Part shown: in pieces, positions 1 through 12,259 of the stretch
How the letters are laid out: the number at the start of each line of letters is the position of its first letter
Numbering within the stretch: position 1 is the first letter of the stretch
IMG/VR virus record: IMGVR_UViG_3300042898_005595
Span: 1 to 60,222 of that record
DNA: 60,222 bases
Origin: a virus
Lineage: Duplodnaviria > Caudoviricetes
Strand: one strand, 5' to 3'
Notes under the pieces: generated by a model
Seen by the model: only the letters and a program-made list of their open reading frames with translations
Told to the model about the DNA's origin: nothing
The model's database searches: none
Translations under genes and position numbers: made by a program

Positions 1-18
1 TGTACCATACTAGCTTCC
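1..18 (-). tRNA. 5' end of a probable further tRNA-like gene, cut by the window edge
   Basis: Minus strand reads GGAAGCTAGTATGGTACA, 10 nt after the preceding tRNA-like gene in the cluster; no anticodon visible. Confidence 0.3.
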
Positions 19-28
19 AATCAATATG

Positions 29-109
29 TCGGCGTGACTGGAATCGAACCAGCATTTTCACTTACCAATTACCCGTAGCAATCTTATCAGGATTGAGGGT
101 TACACGCCG
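29..109 (-). tRNA. Atypical tRNA-Ile(GAU)-like gene without a normal D arm
   Basis: Acceptor CGGCGTG/CACGCCG+A, anticodon arm CAATC-CTGATAA-GATTG, T arm GCTGG-TTCGATT-CCAGT; only 7 nt between acceptor and anticodon stems. Confidence 0.6.
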
Positions 110-824
110 TTTTCTCTTCAAAATGTGTTTCCTTATGACAATTAGAACATAATAAAATACACTTATCAACTTCATTTTTTAATCTTTCAAAAGACCAAGA
201 TTTACCTGAAATGGTGAAATCTTTTTCATTTGGATCCCTATGGTGAAATTCAAGAGCATCTATACATTTTTTATATCTACATCTTTCACACTCACCACCT
301 TTATATTCTACAAGTTCAATTTTCTTTCTCCTTCTCCATTCAACTACTCCTTTTACTAATTGTTTTTTTCTTTTTTGTGAAACAATATTCATAACAGAAT
401 CTCTCGAAACATTTAGTAGTTTGGCTACCTTTCTAGTACTTTTAACTTCTTTATATGTTTCTCTTATCTTTGATTTAGTATCATTTGATATTTCAGAAAA
501 TTTCCTATTCATTATTAGTTCATATTCTCTACATATTTTTCCTATTATTGATTTCGATAGTCCTGTTATTTTTTTAATTTCTTCATAAGTTTTTAATTCT
601 TTTCTTAGTTCAATTACTTCATCAATTTTATCTGTTTCTAGTAAAAAAGAATTTGATTTTTCTTGTCTCTTATTTTTTATTTTTAAATTATTTTTTATTT
701 TCTCGTCATTATTCTCGATTTTAGAACAGTGATAAGAAATTGTGGATTTAGAACAATTTAATTTTTTAGCAATTTCATTATAACTAAATCCAAGTTTTCT
801 GAGTTCTAATATTTCTTTTTTCAT
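87..824 (-). CDS. HNH homing endonuclease with N-terminal helix-turn-helix repeats
   Basis: HTH-like repeats (FSYNEIAKKLNCSKSTISYH); C-terminal CERC..LEFHHRDP..CILLCSNCHKETH. Confidence 0.85.
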   Translation of the reverse strand: MKKEILELRKLGFSYNEIAKKLNCSKSTISYHCSKIENNDEKIKNNLKIKNKRQEKSNSFLLETDKIDEVIELRKELKTYEEIKKITGLSKSIIGKICREYELIMNRKFSEISNDTKSKIRETYKEVKSTRKVAKLLNVSRDSVMNIVSQKRKKQLVKGVVEWRRRKKIELVEYKGGECERCRYKKCIDALEFHHRDPNEKDFTISGKSWSFERLKNEVDKCILLCSNCHKETHFEEKTACNPQS

Positions 825-868
825 TTTGATTAACTTATTTTGTTAATCATATATATTAAAAATCTTTG

Positions 869-939
869 CTCCCCAGGTAGGTTACGATCCTACTTCCTAC
901 GTGTTAACAGCACGTTGCTCGCCACTGAGCTTCTGAGGA
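869..939 (-). tRNA. tRNA-Asn(GUU)
   Basis: Acceptor TCCTCAG/CTGGGGA+G; anticodon arm ACGTG-CTGTTAA-CACGT. Confidence 0.9.
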
Positions 940-952
940 ATATTTCTGTTTG

Positions 953-1025
953 TAGCTCCTGCGGGATTCGAACCCACATTCTCGCTTTAGAAGAGCGATG
1001 TCCTGTCCAGTTGGACGAAGGAGCT
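953..1025 (-). tRNA. tRNA-Arg(UCU)
   Basis: Acceptor AGCTCCT/AGGAGCT; anticodon arm TCGCT-CTTCTAA-AGCGA; GGTTCGAATCC T arm. Confidence 0.92.
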
Positions 1026-1030
1026 TTTTG

Positions 1031-1119
1031 TACCTCAGGTCGGACTCGAACCGACAGTGTTTTCCACGAGGGTGCTAGTTTCTAAAACTAGTGCGTTTCA
1101 ACCGTTTCGCCACTGAGGC
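1031..1119 (-). tRNA. tRNA-Leu(UAG)
   Basis: Anticodon arm CTAGT-TTTAGAA-ACTAG, long variable arm, canonical T arm. Confidence 0.92.
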
Positions 1120-1158
1120 ATCTTGTACCATTTTTTAAAAGGTGGTACTTCCTTTTTG

Positions 1159-1233
1159 TACTCCCCATCGGATTCGAACCGATACCTGTACAGGGTTTAA
1201 GTCTGTTGCCTCTTCCAATTGGGCTACGGGACC
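1159..1233 (-). tRNA. tRNA-Leu(UAA) with short variable arm and acceptor mismatches
   Basis: Anticodon loop CTTAAAC, T arm ATCGG-TTCGAAT-CCGAT; acceptor GGTCCCG/GGGGAGT has two G-G mismatches. Confidence 0.75.
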
Positions 1234-1237
1234 ATAT

Positions 1238-1275
1238 AAAACAAAAAACCCGAACTTCTTTCGAGGTTCGGGTTT
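1238..1275 (-). terminator. Attenuator terminator of the Leu/Arg/Asn/Ile tRNA operon
   Basis: AAACCCGAACCTC-GAAA-GAAGTTCGGGTTT then TTTGTTTT, directly before tRNA-Leu(UAA). Confidence 0.85.
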
Positions 1276-1302
1276 ATATCTTATTTGGAGTTATTTACTT
1301 CA

Positions 1303-1410
1303 TCATGAGATAAATCCAAATTTTGCACAACCCGAACCAGCGGTTCTAATACATAACGTATTCACCACCATCGTGAGATTCAAATTGATATTTAGATTCA
1401 TTGTTTTCAT
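1303..1410 (-). CDS. Leader peptide (35 aa, Asn/Leu-rich) of a tRNA operon attenuator
   Basis: MKTMNLNINLNLTMVVNTLCIRTAGSGCAKFGFIS*; contains GGTTCGGGTT, fully complementary to the terminator 5' arm. Confidence 0.75.
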   Translation of the reverse strand: MKTMNLNINLNLTMVVNTLCIRTAGSGCAKFGFIS

Positions 1411-1457
1411 TATTTCTTATATATTAAAAAGTTTATGTTCCTTTTGATTTTGTTTTA

Positions 1458-1489
1458 CAAATATATGGTGTATTTTTTACACCACCAAA
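1458..1489 (-). promoter_or_regulatory. Bacteroidota-type primary sigma promoter
   Basis: TTTG-N20-TATATTTG matches the -33/-7 consensus TTTG/TAnnTTTG; a second TATATTTG lies at 1524-1531. Confidence 0.75.
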
Positions 1490-1548
1490 TTTATTTTATT
1501 ATTTTTCTGTTTTTATTGTATTACAAATATACAATAAAGTTTTTAAAG

Positions 1549-2316
1549 TTATAGAGATATATTATTACTCTTTAAAACTTCGGCTAGAACTTCAATAGAT
1601 TCTTCTACTCTATCGTATTGAAATATTCCATTACTATTTGGCTTTGGCCAGTAGTTTATTTTCCACTCATATCTTGGATAAACATTGACTACTCTACTTT
1701 CAATATTTTTGTATTTTAAATAGTAACTAAAAATATGATCATCATGCATCGCAATCATATCGTGAAGCTTATATCCATCGATGAACATATTTACCCAATT
1801 ATATAAATCCTCATAATTTAGAATATTTGCTGGGTAAAGAACTCCACGATATCCACCTAACAAATCAACAATATGATAGTCACCATTTATAAATTCACCA
1901 TGGACAAATTTATCATCTTTAATACCCATTATTCCATATACAGAGTCACTACCACACTTATCATGAATATTTTTCAAACATTCTATAGCAGTTGGGAATA
2001 ATCCATTATCATCATCAAATATTAATATTTGATCATCAGATTGTAAGTTATGTTCCTTTAGTGGAGTTAATAGTTTAAGACAAGGTCCTATATCCTGATC
2101 ATAAAAAACTATCCTATTCTCGATAGGATAGTTTTTTAATTTTTCAGATATTTTTTCAATATCAGATTCATCTATAGACTTATTGAGTCTAGGATAAAAT
2201 CTCGATATCGAAACATATAAAAAGTCTGGAATTATTGTACTTAATAATAATTCATCAAGTGTTTTGATGAAATCATCAGTTCTATCGGGTAAAGTAATAA
2301 CAGAAGAGATTATCAT
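1549..2316 (-). CDS. GT-A fold glycosyltransferase-like protein
   Basis: TLPDR start, DIGPCLKL, IFDDD motif, GGYRGVLYP, HDD. Confidence 0.65.
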   Translation of the reverse strand: MIISSVITLPDRTDDFIKTLDELLLSTIIPDFLYVSISRFYPRLNKSIDESDIEKISEKLKNYPIENRIVFYDQDIGPCLKLLTPLKEHNLQSDDQILIFDDDNGLFPTAIECLKNIHDKCGSDSVYGIMGIKDDKFVHGEFINGDYHIVDLLGGYRGVLYPANILNYEDLYNWVNMFIDGYKLHDMIAMHDDHIFSYYLKYKNIESRVVNVYPRYEWKINYWPKPNSNGIFQYDRVEESIEVLAEVLKSNNISL

Positions 2317-2738
2317 TAAACAACTTCTAAAATTTCAATATCAAATACTAATGTCTCACCAGCCAATGGATGATTCGCATCAACTAAGATATTAGAGTCA
2401 TTTATTTCCTTAACTATAAAAGGTACTTCTTGTCCGTTCTTTAGAGTACCTTTCAATGTTTGTCCAATCACAACATTATCAGGAGCCATATTTTTAGGAA
2501 CACTAAGAATCATCTCCTGATTTATCTCACCATATCCTCTTTCTGGATCAATCTGAACAGTTTTTTTCTCACCTGGAATCATACCCAAAACAGCTTCCTC
2601 AAATCCCTGAATTAATTGACCTTCTCCAACAACAAACTCAAGAGCTGTTCTATCATCACGATATGAGGTGTCAAAAATACTATCATTAGTATATTTACCA
2701 GTATAATGTACCTTTACTTTACTTCCGTTTTTAATCAT
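2316..2738 (-). CDS. FKBP-type peptidyl-prolyl isomerase, SlyD-like
   Basis: VKVHYTG..FDTS..GEGQLIQGFEEA..YG..VDANHPLAGETLVFDIEIL. Confidence 0.92.
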   Translation of the reverse strand: MIKNGSKVKVHYTGKYTNDSIFDTSYRDDRTALEFVVGEGQLIQGFEEAVLGMIPGEKKTVQIDPERGYGEINQEMILSVPKNMAPDNVVIGQTLKGTLKNGQEVPFIVKEINDSNILVDANHPLAGETLVFDIEILEVV

Positions 2739-2790
2739 TTCTAATATTTATTTTTAATTTTATTAAAAATAATAGAATAAGTTTAAAATC

Positions 2791-3096
2791 TTAATGTTCC
2801 TGATCATCCCATTCCGTATCATCAGTATATAAATCATCTATATACAAGGATATTTCTTGATATATTTTTTCAACTTGACTATAATCAAACCATCTTGTTT
2901 CAGATTCTAATTCTTGTAAAAATCTAACAAAACTATCTGTACCTGGTTTAAACATTTCAATAAGTTCCTCCTTTGAATGCTCTGGATATTTTAAATCAAT
3001 CCACTCATGGAATATCTCAAAAAGATCTTCTTCTTGTTCAGATGGCAATCCTTGATAATCTTCTTCAAAATCTTCGTACATTTTTAAATAGTTCAT
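2791..3096 (-). CDS. Acidic hypothetical protein with CTS-like N-terminus
   Basis: ORF starting MNYLKMYEDF; TATATA motif upstream. Confidence 0.6.
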   Translation of the reverse strand: MNYLKMYEDFEEDYQGLPSEQEEDLFEIFHEWIDLKYPEHSKEELIEMFKPGTDSFVRFLQELESETRWFDYSQVEKIYQEISLYIDDLYTDDTEWDDQEH

Positions 3097-3137
3097 TACA
3101 AAAAATAATTTTAATTATATATTAAAAATAATTTTAA

Positions 3138-3401
3138 TTAATCAAGATCAAAGATCATTTTATAATATTTTCTAATGTAGTTCGGAAGTTTACCATGTTT
3201 CTCCTCACACCTTTTAAAAAGATCAGCTTGTACAATTGCATTATATTGATCTAAATTATTTGAAAAGACTTTAGTTCGTATATCGATATGTGCATCTGCA
3301 CCATCTTCACCCTTATAAGCGTCTATCAAACTTTTATAAGAACCTGATATCTTTGCAGGTAATACATTATTAGACTCGTTAAACTTTTTTAAATGCTTCA
3401 T
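3138..3401 (-). CDS. Hypothetical protein with CTS-like N-terminus
   Basis: MKHLKKFNES. Confidence 0.6.
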   Translation of the reverse strand: MKHLKKFNESNNVLPAKISGSYKSLIDAYKGEDGADAHIDIRTKVFSNNLDQYNAIVQADLFKRCEEKHGKLPNYIRKYYKMIFDLD

Positions 3402-3469
3402 ATTTTGTAAATGATTTAATTATATATTAAAAAGTCTAATTAAAAATTTCATATTTTAATATATAATAT

Positions 3470-3952
3470 ATGAAATACTTAAAACTATTTGAATCATTTG
3501 ACATAGATGAAGACGCTGAACATCTTAAAGATTTATCTTTGGATTTAAAAGATGAAGGCGAATGGAGTATAACTATTCACACAAATGTTGAAAAGTATAA
3601 TGACGATGATTATTCTACAAGAGTTATTCTTGAACCATTAGATGAATTTGATTGGGATGGTCCGGGAGTTGCCGAGGGTAATACTAAAGGTGGTAAGATA
3701 AATGATACACTAATTCAATATCTGGAAGACATTGTAGAGTATATGGAGGATTATGATTATAAAATAATAGTTGTAGGTGATGGTGATAACCCTATAACGA
3801 TCAACAGCTCACATCATGAAATAAACATAGAAAATGTTGAAGAGTTTAAAAAATGGACACAAAGAGAATTAAAATATCAAAGAAGTGACATAATGACATT
3901 TGGATTTAAAGGTGATTTAATCATTATAGAATTCTATGAAAAAGATATATAA
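3470..3952 (+). CDS. Acidic hypothetical protein with CTS-like N-terminus
   Basis: MKYLKLFESF; AATATATA directly upstream. Confidence 0.65.
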   Translation: MKYLKLFESFDIDEDAEHLKDLSLDLKDEGEWSITIHTNVEKYNDDDYSTRVILEPLDEFDWDGPGVAEGNTKGGKINDTLIQYLEDIVEYMEDYDYKIIVVGDGDNPITINSSHHEINIENVEEFKKWTQRELKYQRSDIMTFGFKGDLIIIEFYEKDI

Positions 3953-3955
3953 CAT

Positions 3956-4822
3956 ATGAAAAAATTCTCTGAGTCACAGATTTCAATTTTTGAATCTCCA
4001 GAACCTCTCGACTTTGTATCACTATTTGAAAAGATGAAAAATCTTAAGTCTTGGCTTTACACGTCAACTGGTCTTGGTATGATGTCTATAATTGATGATA
4101 TATTCAAAGAATATAATTATGAAACATCATTAAATCAAAATCAAATTGATAAGTTTAATAGAGGTGTTGAATTATTGAAAAAAACCTCAATGCCATTAGA
4201 CCACATAAATTTACGACTATCTCAAAAATTACCAGGTGGCATACAAAGTAAAAAATTAGTTTTAGATGAGAATGGCGAATGGGATTATGTCAATAAATTA
4301 AATACAAATTATTTAGATTTATCTGATCTTTTAGTTGAATTAATAAAAAGAGGATGTGATAACAACTATGAAAAGGGTAAATTAGTATATGATTCAATTA
4401 TGAATAATCCCAAACAAGGATTGTTAGAAATAAAACCATACTTAAAAAGATTAATAGTACTTTACTTTATTGAAAAGGGGAAAGGATTGGATGATTTTAA
4501 AAAATTTACGGTATATTCAAAGAAAATGTCTAAGATAGGAGAAGTAGCTGAAGATTCAGTAACAGCCTTTTTACAATCTAAAGGATTTTTAATCGCACAC
4601 TCTGGTGGAAATGGAGATTTTATAGATATGGTTTTCGGTGTTGATTTGATAATTTTTTGTCATACTAATAAAAATCCAGATCTTGTTGGATACAAAAGCG
4701 TCCAGATAAAAAATAGGATTGATGATTGGTCTAAATTAAGTTACTATAAAGTTGATATAGTAGCAGAAACAAACCCAGTAAGGTTCTATAACCTTAAAGA
4801 TAAATCTATTTTAGATCTTTAA
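3956..4822 (+). CDS. Hypothetical protein, possible C-terminal PD-(D/E)xK nuclease fold
   Basis: GEVAE..DMVFGVDLII..SVQIK pattern. Confidence 0.45.
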   Translation: MKKFSESQISIFESPEPLDFVSLFEKMKNLKSWLYTSTGLGMMSIIDDIFKEYNYETSLNQNQIDKFNRGVELLKKTSMPLDHINLRLSQKLPGGIQSKKLVLDENGEWDYVNKLNTNYLDLSDLLVELIKRGCDNNYEKGKLVYDSIMNNPKQGLLEIKPYLKRLIVLYFIEKGKGLDDFKKFTVYSKKMSKIGEVAEDSVTAFLQSKGFLIAHSGGNGDFIDMVFGVDLIIFCHTNKNPDLVGYKSVQIKNRIDDWSKLSYYKVDIVAETNPVRFYNLKDKSILDL

Positions 4823-5405
4823 TTTGGATCATCTTTCTAACAACCGTTTTCAATCCCGGATTCACCAATAGTGCCTCTGGTACAATATTGTGACGAATAC
4901 GATTTCTTGAATAATCAACACAAGAATTAGATTCATCTTCAACAAATGGTACATTTTTATTCTGACACCATTTATAAAATACTGATTTTTCATTAAGTAA
5001 GAATGGTCGAATCACATTTCCTCTAGAATAAGGAATAACCGATTGAAATCCTCTAAGACAAGAGAATAAGTAAGTCTCTACACAATCATCTAAATGATGG
5101 CAAGTAATAATAGGAAAATCAAATTGTGAGAAAAATTCATATCTCAAATCACTCCAAATCTTTTCTTTGTTAGATTTAGGACTTAAATCAGTTCTTCCAA
5201 CAAATAATTTTAAGTTATGAGTTCTACAATATTTTGTAACTAATTCTTCGGCTTTATCTCCATTTTCTGTATTATGATTGAAGTATAGAATATTAGGATA
5301 ATATCCACCATTCAATAGAAAGTTAGCAATCGCCATTGAATCAACTCCACCAGAACAAGCAAGTCCGAATTCTCCTTTTGGAATATTACCTAAAACTTTA
5401 ATCAT
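4806..5405 (-). CDS. tilS: tRNA(Ile)-lysidine synthetase, catalytic domain only
   Basis: SGGVDS PP-loop, FNH, LRY, HHLDDCVET, IRPFL, DESN..RNRIRH; likely ATG at 5405 just after TATATTTG. Confidence 0.88.
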   Translation of the reverse strand: MIKVLGNIPKGEFGLACSGGVDSMAIANFLLNGGYYPNILYFNHNTENGDKAEELVTKYCRTHNLKLFVGRTDLSPKSNKEKIWSDLRYEFFSQFDFPIITCHHLDDCVETYLFSCLRGFQSVIPYSRGNVIRPFLLNEKSVFYKWCQNKNVPFVEDESNSCVDYSRNRIRHNIVPEALLVNPGLKTVVRKMIQIKDLK

Positions 5406-5450
5406 ATACAAATATAATCAAATTATTGTAAATTTCAAGATAATTAATTG

Positions 5451-5525
5451 TGGAGCGTAAGGGAATCGAACCCTGTTTTTCAGAACAACTTGCAAAGTTG
5501 TTTGGTCACGCCTGTACAACGCCCC
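5451..5525 (-). tRNA. tRNA-Ala(UGC) with atypical D region
   Basis: Acceptor GGGGCGT/ACGCTCC+A with G3:U70; anticodon arm ACAAC-TTTGCAA-GTTGT; TTCGATT T loop. Confidence 0.7.
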
Positions 5526-5534
5526 TTTATTTTG

Positions 5535-5608
5535 TGGAGAATATCGGATTTGAACCGATTACCTTTTGTATGCCATACAAACTCTCTAGCCAACTGAGCT
5601 AATTCCCC
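5535..5608 (-). tRNA. tRNA-Ala(GGC)
   Basis: Acceptor GGGGAAT/ATTCTCC with G3:U70; anticodon arm TTTGT-ATGGCAT-ACAAA. Confidence 0.88.
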
Positions 5609-5646
5609 TGGAGCCGGACCCTGGGACTAACAGGGAGTCCTCCGGC
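5609..5646 (-). ncRNA. 38-nt tRNA-minihelix-like element ending in UCCA
   Basis: GCCGGA-GGACT-CCCTG-TTAGTCC-CAGGG-TCCGGC-TCCA, abutting G1 of tRNA-Ala(GGC). Confidence 0.5.
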
Positions 5647-5649
5647 ATT

Positions 5650-6300
5650 TTAAATATCAACTTTTTTAATAACTCTTCCTTTTATCCATCCAATACTTAT
5701 ATAATCATTTAAATCATTTTTATTAATTTTTTTATTTCCGAATTCAATATGATATATCCAACAAGTTCCATATTGAGAATTTTTCTCACCTTTTTGACTT
5801 TTAGAATTTTTTTCACCAATCTTCTTTTTCGATTCTTCTTTATGACTCTTTCCTGTCCAATCAGGTGCCTTTAAAATTCCCAATTCTCTAAGATTTCTAT
5901 TCTGTATAACCATTCTTTCTTTATTTCTTTTTCTGAATTCTGGATTATTCCAATTAATTTTATTCATTGAAATAGCAGCTTTTTTATTTTTTTCCTTTCT
6001 TAGTACAATGTTAGAATTTATTGATTCAAAACAATCACCACCTACAATTATATTATACACATCAATTCTTTTTATAAAACTCTCATTAACTATTTTTTTC
6101 TCCATTTCGTATGCCTCATTCTCACTATCTAATATAAATAATATATCCTTTACAAAATTTTCAACTCCATATTTAATTATGGCTCTTCTAATATATTTTC
6201 CACTTCCCATATAACCATCATTTATATCAGTCGTTGAGTGTTTACCTATGTAAATTTTACCATTTAAGATATTTGTAATTTTATAAATTATATGCAACAT
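5650..6300 (-). CDS. GIY-YIG homing endonuclease (Seg-like) within the tRNA cluster
   Basis: IIYKITNILNGKIYIGKH..YMGSG..YN; NUMOD3-like GKSHKEESKKKIG. Confidence 0.9.
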   Translation of the reverse strand: MLHIIYKITNILNGKIYIGKHSTTDINDGYMGSGKYIRRAIIKYGVENFVKDILFILDSENEAYEMEKKIVNESFIKRIDVYNIIVGGDCFESINSNIVLRKEKNKKAAISMNKINWNNPEFRKRNKERMVIQNRNLRELGILKAPDWTGKSHKEESKKKIGEKNSKSQKGEKNSQYGTCWIYHIEFGNKKINKNDLNDYISIGWIKGRVIKKVDI

Positions 6301-6346
6301 AACAAGAACTATTTATTTTATATATTAAATAGTTCGAGTCCTGTTA
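6299..6346 (-). promoter_or_regulatory. Hairpin occluding the endonuclease start, with TATATA in the loop
   Basis: TAACAG..GAACTATTT-AATATATAAAAT-AAATAGTTC-TTGTTATG. Confidence 0.6.
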
Positions 6347-6354
6347 CTCACAAG

Positions 6355-6425
6355 AGCAAAATGTGGGAATCAAACCCCGTCCCCACATTGGAAGTGTGGT
6401 GCTTTATCATTAAGCTACATTTTGC
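6355..6425 (-). tRNA. tRNA-Gly(UCC), apparent 8-bp acceptor and 4-nt T stem
   Basis: GCAAAATG/CATTTTGC+T; anticodon arm CCACA-CTTCCAA-TGTGG. Confidence 0.75.
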
Positions 6426-6430
6426 TTATG

Positions 6431-6504
6431 TTGGTGAGGTGGGTAACGATCCCACTATCTTGTGTGTATAAGACACATGCTTCTACCGTCTAAGCTACTC
6501 ACCA
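6431..6504 (-). tRNA. tRNA-Ile(UAU)
   Basis: Acceptor TGGTGAG/CTCACCA; anticodon arm TGTGT-CTTATAC-ACACA; T loop ATCGTTA. Confidence 0.85.
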
Positions 6505-6541
6505 AAATAAAAAAACCCAGTCAATTTTCATCGACTGGGTT
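6505..6541 (-). terminator. Attenuator terminator of the Ile/Gly/Ala tRNA operon
   Basis: AACCCAGTCGAT-GAAA-ATTGACTGGGTT then TTTTTATTT. Confidence 0.88.
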
Positions 6542-6568
6542 AAGTTTTTTAGTTTTTAATATTATAAT

Positions 6569-6655
6569 TTAAAAACTTTTTGACATAACACAGTCATTGA
6601 CACCCGCTCCCGCGCCGCCTCCGATTATTGCTATTGTTATGTTTAAAGTTTTCAT
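6569..6655 (-). CDS. Leader peptide (28 aa, Ile/Gly/Ala-rich)
   Basis: MKTLNITIAIIGGGAGAGVNDCVMSKSF*; ATAx3, ATC, GGA GGC GGC GCG GGA GCG GGT. Confidence 0.85.
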   Translation of the reverse strand: MKTLNITIAIIGGGAGAGVNDCVMSKSF

Positions 6656-6716
6656 TTTATTCTATTTTTAATTATATTATTATATATTAGAAAAGTTTTC
6701 TTTCCTAAATTTTTTG

Positions 6717-6799
6717 TTGGAAGAGAGGGATTCGAACCCCCGTACTCCGAAGAGATTTGATTTACAGTCAAACGCATTTAGCCACTCTGCCACCTTCCA
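6717..6799 (-). tRNA. tRNA-Tyr(GUA)
   Basis: Anticodon arm TTTGA-CTGTAAA-TCAAA, long variable arm, GGTTCGAATCC. Confidence 0.92.
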
Positions 6800-6808
6800 A
6801 TATTTTTG

Positions 6809-6879
6809 TAGCCCGTAGGGGTAACGATCCCCTCTTTTTTGGTTGAAAACCAAGAGTCCTTCCTCTAGACGAACGGGCC
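6809..6879 (-). tRNA. tRNA-Glu(UUC)
   Basis: GGCCCGTTCGTCTAG..GGAC; anticodon loop TTTTCAA; T loop ATCGTTA. Confidence 0.88.
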
Positions 6880-6885
6880 AATTTG

Positions 6886-6959
6886 CACTCTTGACGGGAA
6901 TCGAACCCACATCTACATCGGTCTGAGAAACCGGAGTCCTACCGTTAGACGACAAGAGC
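6886..6959 (-). tRNA. tRNA-Glu(CUC)
   Basis: GCTCTTGTCGTCTAACGGTAGGAC; anticodon loop TTCTCAG; GGGTTCGATTCCC. Confidence 0.88.
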
Positions 6960-6965
6960 ATTTAG

Positions 6966-7036
6966 TGGGATAAGAGAGAATCGAACTCTCGTAGCTATGT
7001 TTTACAGACATTCTTGGTTGCCCTGACCTTTATCCC
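6966..7036 (-). tRNA. Atypical tRNA-Tyr(GUA) with short variable arm and odd D arm
   Basis: Acceptor GGGATAA/TTATCCC+A; ATGT-CTGTAAA-ACAT; GAGAG-TTCGATT-CTCTC. Confidence 0.7.
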
Positions 7037-7042
7037 AATTTG

Positions 7043-7116
7043 TACTCTTGACGGGAATCGAACCCGCATCTACATCTGTTTGAAAAACAGGAGTCCTACC
7101 GTTAGACGACAAGAGC
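7043..7116 (-). tRNA. tRNA-Glu(UUC)
   Basis: Near-duplicate of 6886-6959 with anticodon loop TTTTCAA. Confidence 0.88.
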
Positions 7117-7131
7117 ATTTACAATATATTT

Positions 7132-7168
7132 AAAACAAAAAACCCAGTCAATTTGATTTGACTGGGTT
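7132..7168 (-). terminator. Attenuator terminator of the Glu/Tyr tRNA operon
   Basis: AACCCAGTCAA-ATCAAA-TTGACTGGGTT then TTTTGTTTT. Confidence 0.88.
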
Positions 7169-7195
7169 ACTTGTGTTTTTAGTTAATATTTTATA

Positions 7196-7276
7196 TCAAC
7201 TTTTCACAGACATAGTATCTCCAGTCGCTGAGTGTTCTTCATACGCTTCATAATAATATGTTGTTACAGTTGTCAT
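7196..7276 (-). CDS. Leader peptide (26 aa, Tyr/Glu-rich)
   Basis: MTTVTTYYYEAYEEHSATGDTMSVKS*; TAT TAT TAT GAA GCG TAT GAA GAA. Confidence 0.85.
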   Translation of the reverse strand: MTTVTTYYYEAYEEHSATGDTMSVKS

Positions 7277-7311
7277 GATTTCTTTATTTTAAATTGTTCT
7301 ATTTTGTTTTA

Positions 7312-7342
7312 CAAATATACGGAGATTTTTTAAACCACCAAA
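7312..7342 (-). promoter_or_regulatory. Bacteroidota-type promoter driving the Tyr/Glu leader
   Basis: TTTG-N19-TATATTTG. Confidence 0.78.
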
Positions 7343-7361
7343 TATTTGTAAAACTTTTTTG

Positions 7362-7433
7362 TAGCGGGGGGTGGAATCGAACCACCGACCTTTAGGTTAT
7401 GAGCCTAACGAGCTGCCTCTGCTCTACCCCGCA
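7362..7433 (-). tRNA. tRNA-Met(CAU), initiator-like
   Basis: TGCGGGGTAGAGCAG..AGCTCG, anticodon arm TTAGG-CTCATAA-CCTAA, 1:72 mismatch; own TATATTTG at 7451-7458. Confidence 0.88.
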
Positions 7434-7538
7434 ATATTTAGTATATATTACAAATATACTTCTTTGTTTTAATTTTTTTAATATATAATTTTATAATTAA
7501 CTTTTTTTTATTATATTTGTAAAACAAACAACAGAACT

Positions 7539-7886
7539 ATGACAAATTTCCTATCAATAGATGAACGTAATCAAATTGAGAAAGCAAAGGCTGAAATTAA
7601 GTCAGAACTATCTCGATTAAGAAACAAAATTAATAATTTTGTAGGTATTGAAATATTTACTTTTATTCTAACACTTTCATATCTCAATAATCAATCTTTT
7701 CTATTTGATACCAATCCAATTGTTGCATGGTCAATCCTTACAGGATTAGTCCTATTTCAAGTTATTCTAGTAATGGCCACACGAGTGGCTCTATACAATT
7801 GGAATACTAACCAACGTGTATTAGAGATTTATGACATGTCAGACGAAGAGTTTGACAGAAAATTCAAAGAATTCTGTGAAAAATAA
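7539..7886 (+). CDS. Two-TM membrane protein
   Basis: Two hydrophobic segments; TATATTTG at 7512-7519. Confidence 0.7.
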   Translation: MTNFLSIDERNQIEKAKAEIKSELSRLRNKINNFVGIEIFTFILTLSYLNNQSFLFDTNPIVAWSILTGLVLFQVILVMATRVALYNWNTNQRVLEIYDMSDEEFDRKFKEFCEK

Positions 7887-7909
7887 AAAAGACCTTTTAG
7901 GTCTTTTTT
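7885..7909. terminator. Bidirectional intrinsic terminator
   Basis: AAAAAAGACCT-TTT-AGGTCTTTTTT between convergent genes. Confidence 0.8.
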
Positions 7910-7919
7910 ATTTTAATTT

Positions 7920-8345
7920 TTAATTAGTTGAATCAACTAAGATATCATCTTCATCGGGAAGATCAAAAACTTCTTCATCATCTTTATCAACTTCATTATA
8001 GAGATTTTTGATGAAGTTTGGTGCAGGAACTTTTGCTGTTTTAAAATCTACTAAACTTGGAACTGTTGTTCTAAAAGTAGATAAAAGATAAACTACACTC
8101 CAAACAAAATTTAAATCTTTTAAACATAGTAGAGAGAATACTACTGGAACTAAAATTGGAGAGAATGCTACTAGTCGAACTTGAGTTAGAGTGTTAAGGT
8201 TAGAAATATAAATCCTAACACAGTCAAGTCTCTTGATACGGATCTTATTAATTCTACTGAAAAGTAGAAGAGCAACAAGTATATGTGATAACTCGTGTAG
8301 AACAAGAGCGGGTAAACACCAGATATTTTTATAGAATTTAATCAT
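7920..8345 (-). CDS. Membrane protein with HExxH motif (zincin/M50-like)
   Basis: LVLHELSHILVA..VAFSP. Confidence 0.6.
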   Translation of the reverse strand: MIKFYKNIWCLPALVLHELSHILVALLLFSRINKIRIKRLDCVRIYISNLNTLTQVRLVAFSPILVPVVFSLLCLKDLNFVWSVVYLLSTFRTTVPSLVDFKTAKVPAPNFIKNLYNEVDKDDEEVFDLPDEDDILVDSTN

Positions 8346-8403
8346 GTCTATATGTTGTTTGTTTTACAAATATATGAAAAAAAATGATTAATAAAAAAAT
8401 TAT

Positions 8404-8826
8404 TTAGGTGTTTTGTAAAATTTTTAGGTCAATATCATCAAGAGAATCTCTACCATATTCATTAATTTTATCTAACACATCATCAGTATTTAAATTTTGA
8501 ATACGGATTTGATCAATACTCCATTTAAAAATTTCGTTGTACTTATAAACTCGATGTAGAAGAGGATCAACATCAATCATCTTAACAACTGATTGAGTGA
8601 TATCTGTATAAGAAAAAGAAACACCTTCAGAAACTAATTTTGAAATATATTCATTAGTTTTCTGAGGTGTTTCAGTTAAAAATATTATGTGTCTCTTTCC
8701 TTCTGTTGGAGTTAATCCCCAAGATTGAAAATCTCTTTGATCGATTTCACAATCTTTAGCAATCATTTCAAACTTAAAGACGACCAATCCAAGTGTGTTA
8801 GTGATTCTTTTATTTTCCGGAAGCAT
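8404..8826 (-). CDS. Hypothetical protein with C-terminal rhomboid-tail-like (DUF6576-like) motif
   Basis: DDVLDKINEYGRDSLDDIDLKIL. Confidence 0.55.
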   Translation of the reverse strand: MLPENKRITNTLGLVVFKFEMIAKDCEIDQRDFQSWGLTPTEGKRHIIFLTETPQKTNEYISKLVSEGVSFSYTDITQSVVKMIDVDPLLHRVYKYNEIFKWSIDQIRIQNLNTDDVLDKINEYGRDSLDDIDLKILQNT

Positions 8827-8901
8827 TTTGAATTTTTTATGGTCTAAATATATAAAAAAATTTATATAAAAACAAATTTTTTAAAATTATTAACCGTGTT
8901 G

Positions 8902-9324
8902 TTACGTTCCACTACCAAATCCATGAGGTTGTTTACCTTTAACAAACGAATCAATTACTTGGTAGATATATCTGTAAGCCTTTTTAATTTTTTCATCGGC
9001 CTCTTTGAAAAATTTTGGAGGCCCACCTAACATCGGTCCAGATGGATTTGCCCATCTATTAGATTCACCCATTTCAATCGCTTTTTTATAATCATCCATA
9101 GTTAAATCTGAAAGATCAACTATTCCGTCTATTTTCTTATCAGGGTTTCTAGCTTCCAAATCTATGTACTTCTTTGGTAATGGGTCAAGAGAATCCGGAA
9201 TTACACCAACTTTATCAGCCATCATTTTTTTTCTATTATCCTCATCCTGAAGATATTTGTATACAGGTGAGTCTAAAATTCCTTCGTTTATTTGAAAACT
9301 TTCAAATGTTTTTAAGTGTTTCAT
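8902..9324 (-). CDS. Hypothetical protein with CTS-like N-terminus
   Basis: MKHLKTFESFQINE. Confidence 0.65.
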   Translation of the reverse strand: MKHLKTFESFQINEGILDSPVYKYLQDEDNRKKMMADKVGVIPDSLDPLPKKYIDLEARNPDKKIDGIVDLSDLTMDDYKKAIEMGESNRWANPSGPMLGGPPKFFKEADEKIKKAYRYIYQVIDSFVKGKQPHGFGSGT

Positions 9325-9391
9325 AATTTTTTAAATTATTTTTTTATATTGTATATATTAGTTTTTTAAATCACTTTTTTATATATATGAT

Positions 9392-9868
9392 ATGAAACAT
9401 ATAAATAATTATAAGTTATTTCTTGAATCTAAATCTTATTCAAACTCTTTAATAAGGGATGATAATTTCTATGTTGATTATACATTTGAAGATGATTTAG
9501 GTAATAGATTTCTTGTTCAATTTAAAAATATAACGATAGGTAAAGGAAATTTAAGTAAAGAATATACAATGTCTTATTTTGTTTGGGATGATGATATACA
9601 AGATTGGTCAGTCTCAAAACTAGCAGAATCAAATCCTTGGAGGATTTTATCAACGGTATTAGGAGATATCACAAATGACTTCCTAAAAAGAAAATCATTT
9701 ATTTGTAATAAACTTCAATTTGAAGGATTAGCTAAGGAAAATGAAAAGGGATATATGACACAAAGAACAAAGATGTATCTAAGACATTTAGAAAATAACC
9801 CAATACCTAATTTTAGAATGAGTAATTACGGTAATAACACTATTACACTCACAAGAATTAATAAATAA
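9392..9868 (+). CDS. Hypothetical protein with CTS-like N-terminus, paralog of 39107-39643
   Basis: MKHINNYKLFLES; shared Y.F..D, NP..ILSTV..IT..FLK and R..Y motifs. Confidence 0.65.
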   Translation: MKHINNYKLFLESKSYSNSLIRDDNFYVDYTFEDDLGNRFLVQFKNITIGKGNLSKEYTMSYFVWDDDIQDWSVSKLAESNPWRILSTVLGDITNDFLKRKSFICNKLQFEGLAKENEKGYMTQRTKMYLRHLENNPIPNFRMSNYGNNTITLTRINK

Positions 9869-9871
9869 GTT

Positions 9872-10219
9872 ATGAACAGACCAGAGGTTAGAATAATACA
9901 AGACCAACAAGAAGAGATTAAACCAGCTGATATTTCACAAAATGAAGCTGAAATGCTTCTTGCTAGATATGGTTATGCATCACAACCACAATCTTACCAA
10001 CCTACTCAAAATAATGGATTAACATTTGAGGAAATGATAAGATTACAAGAACAAGAAAATCAACAAAGATTACAAGAACAAATGAAAAAAGTTAATGGTC
10101 CAAAACCATATACATTTGGTGGTAATTACGATACAAATACTGTGTATGGAACAGATGATGGATTCACTTTTAAAGTAAATATAGTAAGTGATATGCCACT
10201 ACCAAAAAGAGATTATTAA
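9872..10219 (+). CDS. Gln-rich hypothetical protein
   Basis: ORF track. Confidence 0.6.
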   Translation: MNRPEVRIIQDQQEEIKPADISQNEAEMLLARYGYASQPQSYQPTQNNGLTFEEMIRLQEQENQQRLQEQMKKVNGPKPYTFGGNYDTNTVYGTDDGFTFKVNIVSDMPLPKRDY

Positions 10220-10220
10220 T

Positions 10221-10910
10221 ATGAAACACATTAAATCATTTCAAAAACACAATGAAGAAATTAGTTTAAAAGGAGTCTTAGCAACAGGAGCCGTAATTGG
10301 TGGTCTTGCCACTGGAGGTGCTTATTTACATGATAAAAATATTGAACCTAAAGAGATTGTGCAATCAAACCATGTTGATATACCAAACTCTTTCCAATTA
10401 AAAAAGAAAATTCTTTCTATTGGAACAGATATGTATATCACAAATGATAATAGAGATAATTTTGGAAAAATAGAAGAAAGAGTCTTATCTTGGGGGAAAA
10501 CTTTCCAATACTATGATAATACTGGGAAGATATTATCAACTGCTAAACAAGAGGTATTCAGTTTTGGAACTAAAATTAATATCACTAATGAAAATGGTCA
10601 AAAAATTGGTTCAGTAGAACAGGAAATAATTGAGTCTATGTTTTCACTACACTCGATTTATAGTATAAAAGATGAAAATGATGAAGTAATTGCTACTTCA
10701 AAAAAACTAGACTTCTTCACATCATATGTTGATATTTTTGATGTATCAGGTAAATTTGTAGCAAATTTTGATCAGAGAGCATTTACAATAGCAGATAAAT
10801 GGAATTGTAAGATTGAATCAACACCAATTGATAAAAGACTAATAATATTCATACCATCTTTTGTATCATCAGCACAATCTGATAAAAGAGAAAAAGAAGG
10901 AAAAAAATAA
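10221..10910 (+). CDS. LURP-one/scramblase-like protein with N-terminal hydrophobic helix
   Basis: MKHIKSF start; repeated KKILSIG/ERVLSWG/QEVFSFG beta units. Confidence 0.6.
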   Translation: MKHIKSFQKHNEEISLKGVLATGAVIGGLATGGAYLHDKNIEPKEIVQSNHVDIPNSFQLKKKILSIGTDMYITNDNRDNFGKIEERVLSWGKTFQYYDNTGKILSTAKQEVFSFGTKINITNENGQKIGSVEQEIIESMFSLHSIYSIKDENDEVIATSKKLDFFTSYVDIFDVSGKFVANFDQRAFTIADKWNCKIESTPIDKRLIIFIPSFVSSAQSDKREKEGKK

Positions 10911-10912
10911 GA

Positions 10913-11392
10913 TTAATCTAAATGTCTCATATCTTTATGAGAAGCCTTTGGTTTATTATTATGTGTCCATAATCTGGTAAAAGGTGTTGTAAAGAAATCA
11001 TTATAAATTAATGTATCATCAATATGCAATGATATACCATGTTCTCTACAATATTCTCCTTTAGCCTTATCCCAAGCATCACCTGCAAATTTCTTTTGAA
11101 TTGTACCATCTGGAAATTTAATTTCACCAGTAGTTGGTGTGTCTATTTCAATTAGGTGATCATAAACTGAAAAATTATGAGTCCATTTAACCCCATAAGA
11201 ATTAATTAAATCTTCTAAATCTTGATTCCAAGATCCACCTGTGATGATATGAATTTCTCCACCATTTTTAATTACAGAATCAGTTAAGAATGCGAAAAAT
11301 TCAGGAAGAGCATCTATTACACCATGTAAGTCTAAACCAATTTTAAACTTTGAAGATGTTGGTTCTGTTAATTTTGAAAATTTACTTATCAT
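10913..11392 (-). CDS. HAD-superfamily-like protein
   Basis: IGLDLHGVI, IITG, K, LHIDD. Confidence 0.6.
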   Translation of the reverse strand: MISKFSKLTEPTSSKFKIGLDLHGVIDALPEFFAFLTDSVIKNGGEIHIITGGSWNQDLEDLINSYGVKWTHNFSVYDHLIEIDTPTTGEIKFPDGTIQKKFAGDAWDKAKGEYCREHGISLHIDDTLIYNDFFTTPFTRLWTHNNKPKASHKDMRHLD

Positions 11393-11408
11393 AAATTATA
11401 TATTAAGG

Positions 11409-11795
11409 TTAATAAACTAAATCTCTCCAATATGGATCTTCGACATGAACAACCAAAATACCTAGTTCTGAAATCATTTTAACTTCAATTTCTGAATTCT
11501 CAAAATGCTTGTTAATACCAAGAGATTTGATCGTATCAGATTTCCATTCTCTGTTTGTAAATATACAATTATTTTGGTTAATATTCAAATCTTTAGCTAA
11601 ATCCCAAACTTTTAAATGTTCATTTGTTAATCCAAGGTTTTTAAATTCTGGACCATACCTCTTTGTTATTATATAAATATCATGTCCTTGACTGATATAG
11701 TTAGAAGCAATTCTCTGGACCTCAACTTTTTGTTTATTAAAAGTTCCATCAAAATCATCTTCAAGAGTTCCATCAAAGTCAAAAGATATCCGCAT
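11409..11795 (-). CDS. HAD-superfamily hydrolase
   Basis: ISFDFDGTL, IITKR, WK. Confidence 0.7.
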   Translation of the reverse strand: MRISFDFDGTLEDDFDGTFNKQKVEVQRIASNYISQGHDIYIITKRYGPEFKNLGLTNEHLKVWDLAKDLNINQNNCIFTNREWKSDTIKSLGINKHFENSEIEVKMISELGILVVHVEDPYWRDLVY

Positions 11796-12259
11796 TATTT
11801 AATACTTAAAATTTCTAATTTCATTAATCCAGAAGGTACTTGAACATCAACAATTTCACCAACTTTTTTACCAATCAGTGCCATCCCAATAGGAGAATTG
11901 AAAGATATCTTACCATTTTTTGTATCAATCTCATTTTCAGAAACTAATTTCCAAACCTGAATCATATTCATTTTATGGTTTTTTATTTCAACAGTTGATA
12001 ACATATTTACACGATCTTGAGAAAGAGCACTTTCAGTTATTATCTCAGATGTTCTAATCTTTTCTTTTAATTGTGCAATTTTATTCATAACATTTGCATG
12101 ATATTCCTTAGCGGCATCATACTCAGCATTCTCAGATAAATCTCCTTTATCACGAGCTTCTTGGAGCATCTGTATCGCATTTCTATACTCAACAGATGTT
12201 AAATTTTCCAAATCATCTGTCATCATTTTATACCCAATTTTTGTTGTATAATTTTTCAT
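11795..12259 (-). CDS. greA: Transcription elongation factor GreA
   Basis: AR.KGDLSENAEYDAAKE, ISFNSPIGMALIGKKVGE. Confidence 0.92.
   Translation of the reverse strand: MKNYTTKIGYKMMTDDLENLTSVEYRNAIQMLQEARDKGDLSENAEYDAAKEYHANVMNKIAQLKEKIRTSEIITESALSQDRVNMLSTVEIKNHKMNMIQVWKLVSENEIDTKNGKISFNSPIGMALIGKKVGEIVDVQVPSGLMKLEILSIK

Follow-up and report, generated by a model that had tools for sequence, protein, structure and literature searches.

A stretch of 60,222 nucleotides from an uncultured virus of the Caudoviricetes (IMG/VR record IMGVR_UViG_3300042898_005595, positions 1 to 60,222; hereafter the window) carries, on its minus strand, genes for isoleucine, glycine and alanine tRNAs that are preceded by a small open reading frame (ORF) rich in the same three amino acids and by a terminator hairpin. 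Judged from its sequence, this Ile/Gly/Ala unit is likely to be a transcription attenuator of the ribosome-mediated, leader-peptide kind, with tRNA genes as its target in place of genes for amino-acid biosynthesis. The Ile, Gly and Ala tRNAs would then probably be made only when ribosomes read the corresponding codons slowly, a direction of response that we infer. The sequence-only reading that had pointed to the unit was confirmed as a whole, and its attenuator interpretation was supported at every sequence-level prediction that could be tested. The source assembly consists of the 60-kb window, within which units of the phage's own genome were counted. A search for sequencing runs containing the sequence listed 21, all of them DNA, which carries no weight for or against expression.

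The leader ORF (Table 1) contains exactly the codons that had been claimed for it, with codons 6–18 running in the order ATA, ACA, ATA, GCA, ATA, ATC, GGA, GGC, GGC, GCG, GGA, GCG and GGT. Twelve of the 13 codons in this core specify Ile, Gly or Ala, which together make up 12 of 27 leader residues (binomial P 1.1e-3) and place the ORF second by this content among the 199 small ORFs in the window. The core had also been described as strikingly GC-rich, and G or C indeed occupies 18 of the 21 bases at 6602–6622 in a window of 28.7% GC, where no other 21-mer has at least 18 G+C. Because long ORFs of the window seldom use GGC (2.3% of their Gly codons) or GCG (6.0% of their Ala codons) and the core is GC-rich, the codon choice of the leader lies far from the habit of the genome. 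In ten orthologs of the unit, the GC-rich core (alignment columns 40–47) is conserved at the nucleotide level, third positions included; what is selected in this conserved core of rare codons could be slow reading of the codons or a structure that causes pausing. All ten aligned orthologs have an intact ATG-initiated ORF of 23–28 codons at the same place, with 71% mean column identity, and translation of the leader is predicted.

The leader stop codon lies 27 nt before the 5′ arm of a predicted intrinsic terminator, the hairpin of which folds at –17.7 kcal/mol when taken alone. Only 2 nt separate the end of the T run from tRNA-Ile(UAU), and no room is left for a promoter between the terminator and the first tRNA. 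Terminator-like sites are frequent in this part of the window (19 in positions 1–12000 vs 3.5±1.8 in shuffles), and the terminator of the Ile/Gly/Ala unit pairs in 93.6% of cells across the ten orthologs. Its 9-nt arms are identical to those of a Tyr/Glu unit further upstream and the 3′ half is similar, while the sensor codons of the two units differ; the pattern of the shared arms has exactly two matches in the window (0.00 expected), in keeping with the earlier statement that the two stems are nearly the same. The shared arms, together with a leader composition that changes with tRNA content in 45 units described below, also support the proposal of a duplicated cassette whose sensor codons were reprogrammed.

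ARAGORN called 13 tRNA genes in the window, in three groups and all on the minus strand. Of the four genes that had been placed downstream of the terminator, Ile(UAU), Gly(UCC) and Ala(GGC) were called by both ARAGORN and Rfam (50–58 bits), while the non-canonical Ala(UGC)-like gene was called by ARAGORN and not reported by the Rfam tRNA model, either in positions 1–12000 at E≤1 or in the whole window at gathering thresholds. Under simple wobble rules, the unit's own anticodons read eight of the 12 sensor codons (ATA three times, GGA twice, GCA, and GCG twice). The claim that the match extends to the isoacceptor thus stood for AUA with UAU, GGA with UCC, and GCA and GCG with UGC; the codons for which it did not are taken up below.

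Table 1. Positions of the features of the Ile/Gly/Ala unit, its two sister units and related genes (window coordinates unless a relative is named).
Feature	Position	Strand	Basis or remark
Promoter-like phage motif, variant copy	6681–6696	–	About 25 nt upstream of leader start codon; direct read
Leader ORF, ATG start, 28 codons and stop	6655–6569	–	ORF list and direct read
Sensor codons 6–18: 4 Ile (ATA ×3, ATC), 5 Gly (GGA ×2, GGC ×2, GGT), 3 Ala (GCA, GCG ×2), 1 Thr	6602–6640	–	
Segment 1 (predicted protector strand)	6635–6642	–	Pairs with 6590–6583 in full-length minimum-energy fold (8 bp)
Segment 2 (predicted antiterminator upstream strand), within codons 21–25	6583–6595	–	Constrained folds
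9-bp helper hairpin inside antiterminator (6577–6569 with 6559–6551)	6551–6577	–	Stop codon in 5′ strand
Segment 3 (partner of segment 2), overlaps terminator 5′ arm	6533–6545	–	Constrained folds
Predicted intrinsic terminator: 12-bp stem (6541–6530 with 6525–6514), 4-nt loop, T run 6513–6507	6507–6541	–	
tRNA-Ile(UAU)	6430–6504	–	ARAGORN; Rfam tRNA 56.6 bits
tRNA-Gly(UCC)	6354–6425	–	ARAGORN; Rfam tRNA 50.3 bits
GIY-YIG homing-endonuclease gene (segB-like), 216 aa	5650–6300	–	Pfam GIY-YIG 24.4 bits
tRNA-Ala(GGC)	5534–5608	–	ARAGORN; Rfam tRNA 57.7 bits
Non-canonical tRNA-Ala(UGC)-like gene	5450–5525	–	ARAGORN
Tyr/Glu unit (U1): 26-codon Tyr/Glu-rich leader 7276–7196 and terminator 7168–7141	7141–7276	–	
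U1 tRNAs: Glu, Tyr-like gene, Glu, Glu, Tyr	7116–6716	–	
Asn/Leu/Arg unit (U3): 35-codon Asn/Leu/Arg-containing leader 1410–1303 and terminator 1275–1246	1246–1410	–	
U3 tRNAs after terminator: Leu(UAA), Leu(UAG), Arg(UCU), Asn(GUU)		–	
Non-canonical Ile(UAU)-like gene, relative L047	9803–9883	–	
Non-canonical Ile(UAU)-like gene, relative L089	6560–6650		
Non-canonical Ile(UAU)-like gene, relative L020	365–450	–	
Non-canonical Ile(UAU)-like gene, relative L022	5808–5890		

The same architecture is found twice more in the window. In the leader of the Tyr/Glu unit, seven codons in a run of eight are TAT (four) or GAA (three), and that of the Asn/Leu/Arg unit has five AAT codons, four Leu codons and AGA. 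When the three leaders were assigned to the three tRNA sets in all possible ways, the true assignment gave 29 matching residues, whereas the other five gave 6–18. The Tyr-like gene of the Tyr/Glu unit (6966–7036, minus strand) was reported by Rfam only, at 32.8 bits.

Related units were collected by scanning IMG/VR with the terminator pattern alone, ignoring leader content, which yielded 109 stretches. These, together with the window and four stretches of two megaphages, were then subjected to a composition-blind rule: a unit required a terminator at most 120 nt upstream of a tRNA, and the longest ATG ORF of 8–60 aa ending between 15 nt inside and 80 nt before the terminator was kept. Of 208 tRNA junctions, 52 had a terminator, and a small ATG ORF was present at 50 of these 52. 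The resulting 45 non-redundant leaders hold 438 residues out of 1236 that belong to their own tRNA set, as compared to 193±18 for permuted sets (0 of 20000 permutations as high), although the units are kin by descent across phages, so that such permutations make the independent events look more numerous than they are. With one representative for each of the ten types, 98 of 267 residues were in-set vs 39±9 (0 of 100000 as high). More persuasive than the permutation counts is how many different types of unit exist. At the codon level, 378 of the 429 in-set residues are readable by the anticodons of the unit, against 335±6 expected from genome usage; for example, units with Arg(ACG/GCG/TCG) use CGN, those with Arg(UCU) use AGA and those with Ile(UAU) use ATA.

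The nearest records in the phage collection searched are those of two unannotated megaphages, LR756502.1 (642 kb) and LR745206.1 (635 kb), which have 50 and 61 tRNA matches, respectively, and which both carry orthologs of the Tyr/Glu and Ile/Gly/Ala units. Further megaphage units have runs of Gln codons before Gln tRNAs, Pro/Asp leaders before Pro and Asp tRNAs, Arg/Ser leaders before Arg and Ser tRNAs, and His/Phe/Lys(/Trp) and Asn/Leu/Thr/Val/Ile leaders before matching tRNAs. New types emerging from the scan included Lys/Tyr, Pro/Gln/Lys/Tyr/Thr/Gly and Cys/Asp/Glu/Tyr leaders, again each before matching tRNAs. Orthologs of the Ile/Gly/Ala unit itself are present in relatives L003, L005, L016, L020, L022, L028, L047, L062, L065 and L089. 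The comparison of cassettes across related phages, which had been proposed as a check on the sequence-only reading, was thereby run, with ten orthologs keeping the ORF and leader composition following the tRNAs in the 45 units. The study that places the two megaphages (PMC9723777) has nothing on tRNA control in its passages on the topic.

These comparisons also bear on two explanations that dispense with a sensing leader. Firstly, the hairpin could be a terminator or processing signal of the upstream Glu/Tyr unit, with the ORF being a chance or vestigial one and the tRNAs being made constitutively by leaky read-through. Twenty-seven codons would stay open by chance about once in ten cases at this base composition (an estimate), and the Gly/Ala-rich core superficially resembles a GxGxxG motif. 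However, the Glu/Tyr unit has its own identical-armed terminator, standing before and not after its tRNAs, while 50 of the 52 terminator-to-tRNA junctions carry an ORF and the same architecture recurs with very different leader compositions that follow the tRNAs. Moreover, all ten orthologs keep an ORF of 23–28 codons while its glycine pattern varies, and we hold this explanation to be very unlikely. A remnant of a dinucleotide-binding protein was separately considered as the source of the Gly/Ala core and was rejected, no fixed glycine pattern being found in the orthologs.

Secondly, the small ORFs could encode functional micropeptides, for example membrane-active or regulatory ones, with a composition set by peptide function and with other reasons for their position beside tRNA genes. 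Conserved N-terminal and some C-terminal residues among the orthologs would fit such a role, but these conserved ends coincide with RNA elements, namely the protector 5-mer and segment 2 discussed below. Furthermore, the chemistry of the peptides differs fully between unit types (poly-Gln, Tyr/Glu, Arg/Ser, hydrophobic Ile/Gly/Ala) and yet always mirrors the downstream tRNAs, and codon choice shifts from genome usage towards the anticodons of the unit. Micropeptides are the most improbable of the explanations considered, and both they and chance ORFs are strongly disfavoured because leader composition follows the tRNAs across unit types.

RNA folding was used to look at the structures that an attenuator would need. 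In the transcript as it stands before the terminator 3′ arm emerges, the minimum-energy fold pairs 6595–6583 (segment 2) with 6545–6533 (segment 3) around the 9-bp helper hairpin. The antiterminator that had been claimed from the sequence was therefore borne out in part, in that both the 10-nt pairing 6595–6586/6542–6533 (9 of 10) and the 9-bp inner hairpin fold; for this unit alone, however, the pairing is no better than in shuffles. With a ribosome placed at codons 6–14, the pairing between segments 2 and 3 persists in the fold preceding the 3′ arm, whereas a ribosome placed over the stop codon hides the helper hairpin and weakens the fold from –24.0 to –13.4 kcal/mol. Over the 45 units, complementarity to the terminator 5′ arm is enriched (mean z –1.9 and –1.3; 44% and 36% in the 5% tail). 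Segments 2 and 3 pair in 79.8% of cells in the ten orthologs, as opposed to 21–39% when the partner is slid, and the corresponding duplex between antiterminator strand and terminator arm in the Asn/Leu/Arg unit (–14.1 kcal/mol) was equalled by one of 200 shuffles.

In the full-length fold, segment 1, at the first Ile codons, pairs with 6590–6583 and would in this model act as a 1:2-type protector. Of the 45 units, 29 have the protector's 5-mer at ORF positions 12–18 (about 2 expected by chance), 19 have its reverse complement close to the end of the ORF (about 3 expected), and 16 have both. The positions of the segments are invariant, so that no covariation can be read from this motif pair.

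In the mechanism that we propose, transcription would enter from the upstream tRNA unit or from the promoter-like motif at 6696–6681, and a ribosome would translate the 28-codon leader. When charged Ile, Gly and Ala tRNAs are plentiful, the ribosome would cross segment 2 and reach the stop codon while the polymerase makes segments 3 and 4; with the ribosome at the stop codon, the terminator (6541–6514) would form and transcription would end 2 nt before tRNA-Ile. When decoding is slow, the ribosome would stall in codons 6–14, leaving segment 2 free to pair with the terminator 5′ arm, and the resulting antiterminator would let the polymerase proceed through the genes for Ile(UAU) and Gly(UCC) and further downstream. 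Decoding would in turn be sped up by the tRNAs so made and the gate would shut, closing a negative feedback loop.

A number of results weigh against this mechanism or its details. When the ribosome is placed at the final sensor codon (codon 18), segment 2 is covered and its pairing with segment 3 is lost. Taken alone, the Ile/Gly/Ala antiterminator was matched by 36 of 200 and 32 of 150 shuffles in two controls, and covariation in its favour is thin, with one column of the shared arm (64/128) changing together with both partners in two sequences of the ten orthologs. The terminator is always the preferred equilibrium structure of the full-length RNA, and control must therefore be kinetic, as in known attenuators. 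The ribosome-free fold preceding the 3′ arm gives the antiterminator and not the protector; in these models an untranslated leader might read through. On the decoding side, four of the 12 sensor codons (GGC twice, GGT and ATC) have no matching anticodon in the unit, tRNA-Ala(GGC) reads no codon of the leader, and neither ARAGORN nor Rfam called a Gly(GCC) tRNA in the window, so that the claimed isoacceptor match fell short for these codons and for Ala(GGC). The Ala tRNAs, moreover, lie behind an endonuclease gene with its own promoter-like motif and may thus escape from the gate. Lastly, by analogy with E. coli, the spacing between leader stop codon and terminator (16–33 nt over the 45 units; median 24 nt, interquartile range 21–26) lies where a ribosome at a stop codon can partly suppress a terminator, according to the passages of PMC4824070 on this point. 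On account of this spacing, the response could also have the opposite sign.

The last point leads to a reversed logic of the pyrBI type, in which a ribosome keeping up with the polymerase would, on arriving at the stop codon only 27 nt from the hairpin, hinder the terminator, and the tRNAs would be made when decoding is fast. The codon-matched leader would then be a licence and not a shortage sensor, and the tRNAs would be cut off when decoding is slow. Such a logic is consistent with a spacing that is short and tightly held, and with the gradual rise of terminator efficiency with stop-codon distance in E. coli, given in the relevant passages of PMC4824070 as 0.12 to 0.8 at 17–18 bp with a maximum beyond 30 bp; the Ile/Gly/Ala antiterminator not being individually significant likewise fits it. 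On the other hand, no ORF runs into the hairpin, the minimum spacing being 16 nt, and reversed logic has no need of the family-enriched complementarity between the 3′ part of the ORF and the terminator 5′ arm. Positive feedback on tRNA supply would also seem to make little regulatory sense. Since the complementarity is family-wide and no ORF reaches the hairpin, the classical sign is favoured, and we regard the reversed one as unlikely.

The missing glycine tRNA might be explained by the history of the block. A Gly(GCC) gene is present in the same unit of five relatives (L003, L005, L020, L065 and L022), and the GIY-YIG endonuclease gene of the window sits at roughly its place (the corresponding stretches being L003 20512–20805 and L022 5960–6340), while in L022, the closest relative, the tRNA block is contiguous and the endonuclease gene absent. 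From this it follows that the Gly(GCC) gene may have been lost from the window unit while the leader kept its GGC codons. The endonuclease gene splits the tRNA block, shows about 70% DNA identity to T4 segB over 268 nt, and is also found in LR756502.1; its own promoter-like motif lies at 6329–6319. The terminator in L047, L089, L020 and L022 is followed first by a non-canonical tRNA-like gene, which ARAGORN missed (Table 1). These Ile(UAU)-like genes have no normal D arm and a long extra region, their anticodon loop was read by eye as TAT, and of three searched with Rfam, one was reported. Over the 45 units, the first tRNA lies a median of 16 nt from the terminator.

With regard to the entry of transcription, an 11-nt AT-rich motif occurs at 21 sites in the window vs 1.4 expected (for example 850–860, 1418–1428 and 6319–6329, all on the minus strand), usually 10–30 nt 5′ of start codons, including those of the Asn/Leu/Arg leader and of the homing-endonuclease gene. 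This motif is a candidate phage promoter. The copy upstream of the Ile/Gly/Ala leader has one inserted base and is thus not among the 21 exact copies, while the L022 ortholog has the exact form at that place. Two nearly identical elements of 31–32 nt were noticed at 1458–1489 and 7312–7342 (both on the minus strand), upstream of the Asn/Leu/Arg and Tyr/Glu leaders, and fit the –33/–7 promoter consensus of Bacteroidota. Matches to this consensus were not significantly enriched in the window (seven vs 3.55±1.92 expected, with 6 of 100 shuffles reaching seven), and only these two are suggestive; they hint at a host from the Bacteroidota and at early transcription by the host polymerase.

Some other features of the neighbourhood were observed. 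Directly after the Ala tRNAs, a 201-aa ORF (4806–5411, minus strand) matches the N-terminal domain of the tRNA lysidine synthetase TilS (TIGR02432, 112 bits vs a cut-off of 93.6; Pfam PP-loop) and lacks the remainder of the full-length protein; a phage enzyme for AUA decoding would therefore adjoin tRNA-Ile(UAU) and its AUA-rich leader. Just 5′ of tRNA-Ala(GGC) lies a GC-rich hairpin of 38 nt (5609–5646, minus strand), which is nearly unchanged in L022 (6138–6175) and is the only other place in the window that reaches 16–17 G+C in 21 bases. At one end of the window, an ORF of 245 aa (87–824, minus strand) with a helix-turn-helix match and a weak HNH match is overlapped at its end by a weak tRNA-like match (29–109, minus strand; Rfam 30.2 bits).

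Such units speak to the question of what large phages gain from their dozens of tRNA genes and how these are expressed. A codon-matched attenuator would mean that the ribosome measures tRNA supply and that transcription corrects it, block by block and partly isoacceptor by isoacceptor. It would add a new kind of target to those of a textbook mechanism, give a direct sequence read-out of the codons that the phage treats as limiting, and predict a response to host defences that cleave tRNAs; synthetic biology could also use the cassettes as compact sensors of decoding speed that can be programmed. It is conceivable, though we would put it somewhat short of probable, that the cassettes are modular, reprogrammable sensors of tRNA supply, with each tRNA block transcribed on demand when exactly those charged isoacceptors fall in the infected cell. 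If so, the fall could stem from the codon demand of the phage, from host shut-off or from anticodon-nuclease defences of the host, and with this arrangement transcriptional feedback on tRNA genes would be described for the first time, in a loop doubling as a counter-defence device. Each time tRNA genes shuffle between blocks, a change of some dozen codons would then be enough for a new specificity.

No T-box, leader or other cis-regulatory family of Rfam was found by cmscan, either in positions 1–12000 at E≤1 or in the whole window at gathering thresholds. The matches in positions 1–12000 were tRNAs and a few sub-threshold, unrelated small RNA families, and those over 6509–6642 were sub-threshold chance matches only. 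The leader families of Rfam include the Trp, His, Leu and Thr leaders. A search of the open full-text literature yielded no description of attenuation of tRNA genes; the mechanism as such is known from the thrL/ilvL type, and tRNA genes as its target are new as far as this search shows.

Leader attenuators that respond to more than one amino acid are well known from enterobacteria, as with thrL (Thr, Ile) and with ilvL and ivbL (Ile, Leu, Val), besides trpL, hisL, leuL and pheL. Like the thrL/ilvL type, the phage cassette combines a short leader ORF with clustered codons for several amino acids, a predicted intrinsic terminator, a putative competing antiterminator strand near the ORF end and a predicted protector pairing that involves the sensor region. 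Unlike that type, it would regulate tRNA genes (and a homing endonuclease) in place of biosynthetic enzymes, so that the decoder itself would be replenished, and the codon choice of its leader tracks particular anticodons. Compared with attenuators of the pyrBI type, where the leader ORF runs into or through the hairpin, the phage leader stops short of it. T-box riboswitches, which bind uncharged tRNA directly and have no leader ORF, would resemble the cassettes in that genes for aminoacylation and supply are tuned to the state of specific tRNAs through a choice between terminator and antiterminator. Among phages, the tRNA region of T4 with segB is likewise a tRNA cluster invaded by a GIY-YIG homing endonuclease, and we know of no codon-matched leader ORF or attenuator described there. 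Nearest in logic is the pheM leader of the E. coli pheST operon for phenylalanyl-tRNA synthetase, in which leader-peptide attenuation controls a gene of the translation apparatus and is sensed through decoding of the cognate codon. In pheM–pheST, however, the target is a synthetase and a single amino acid is sensed, whereas the phage cassettes would act on tRNAs in blocks for several amino acids, reprogrammed from block to block.

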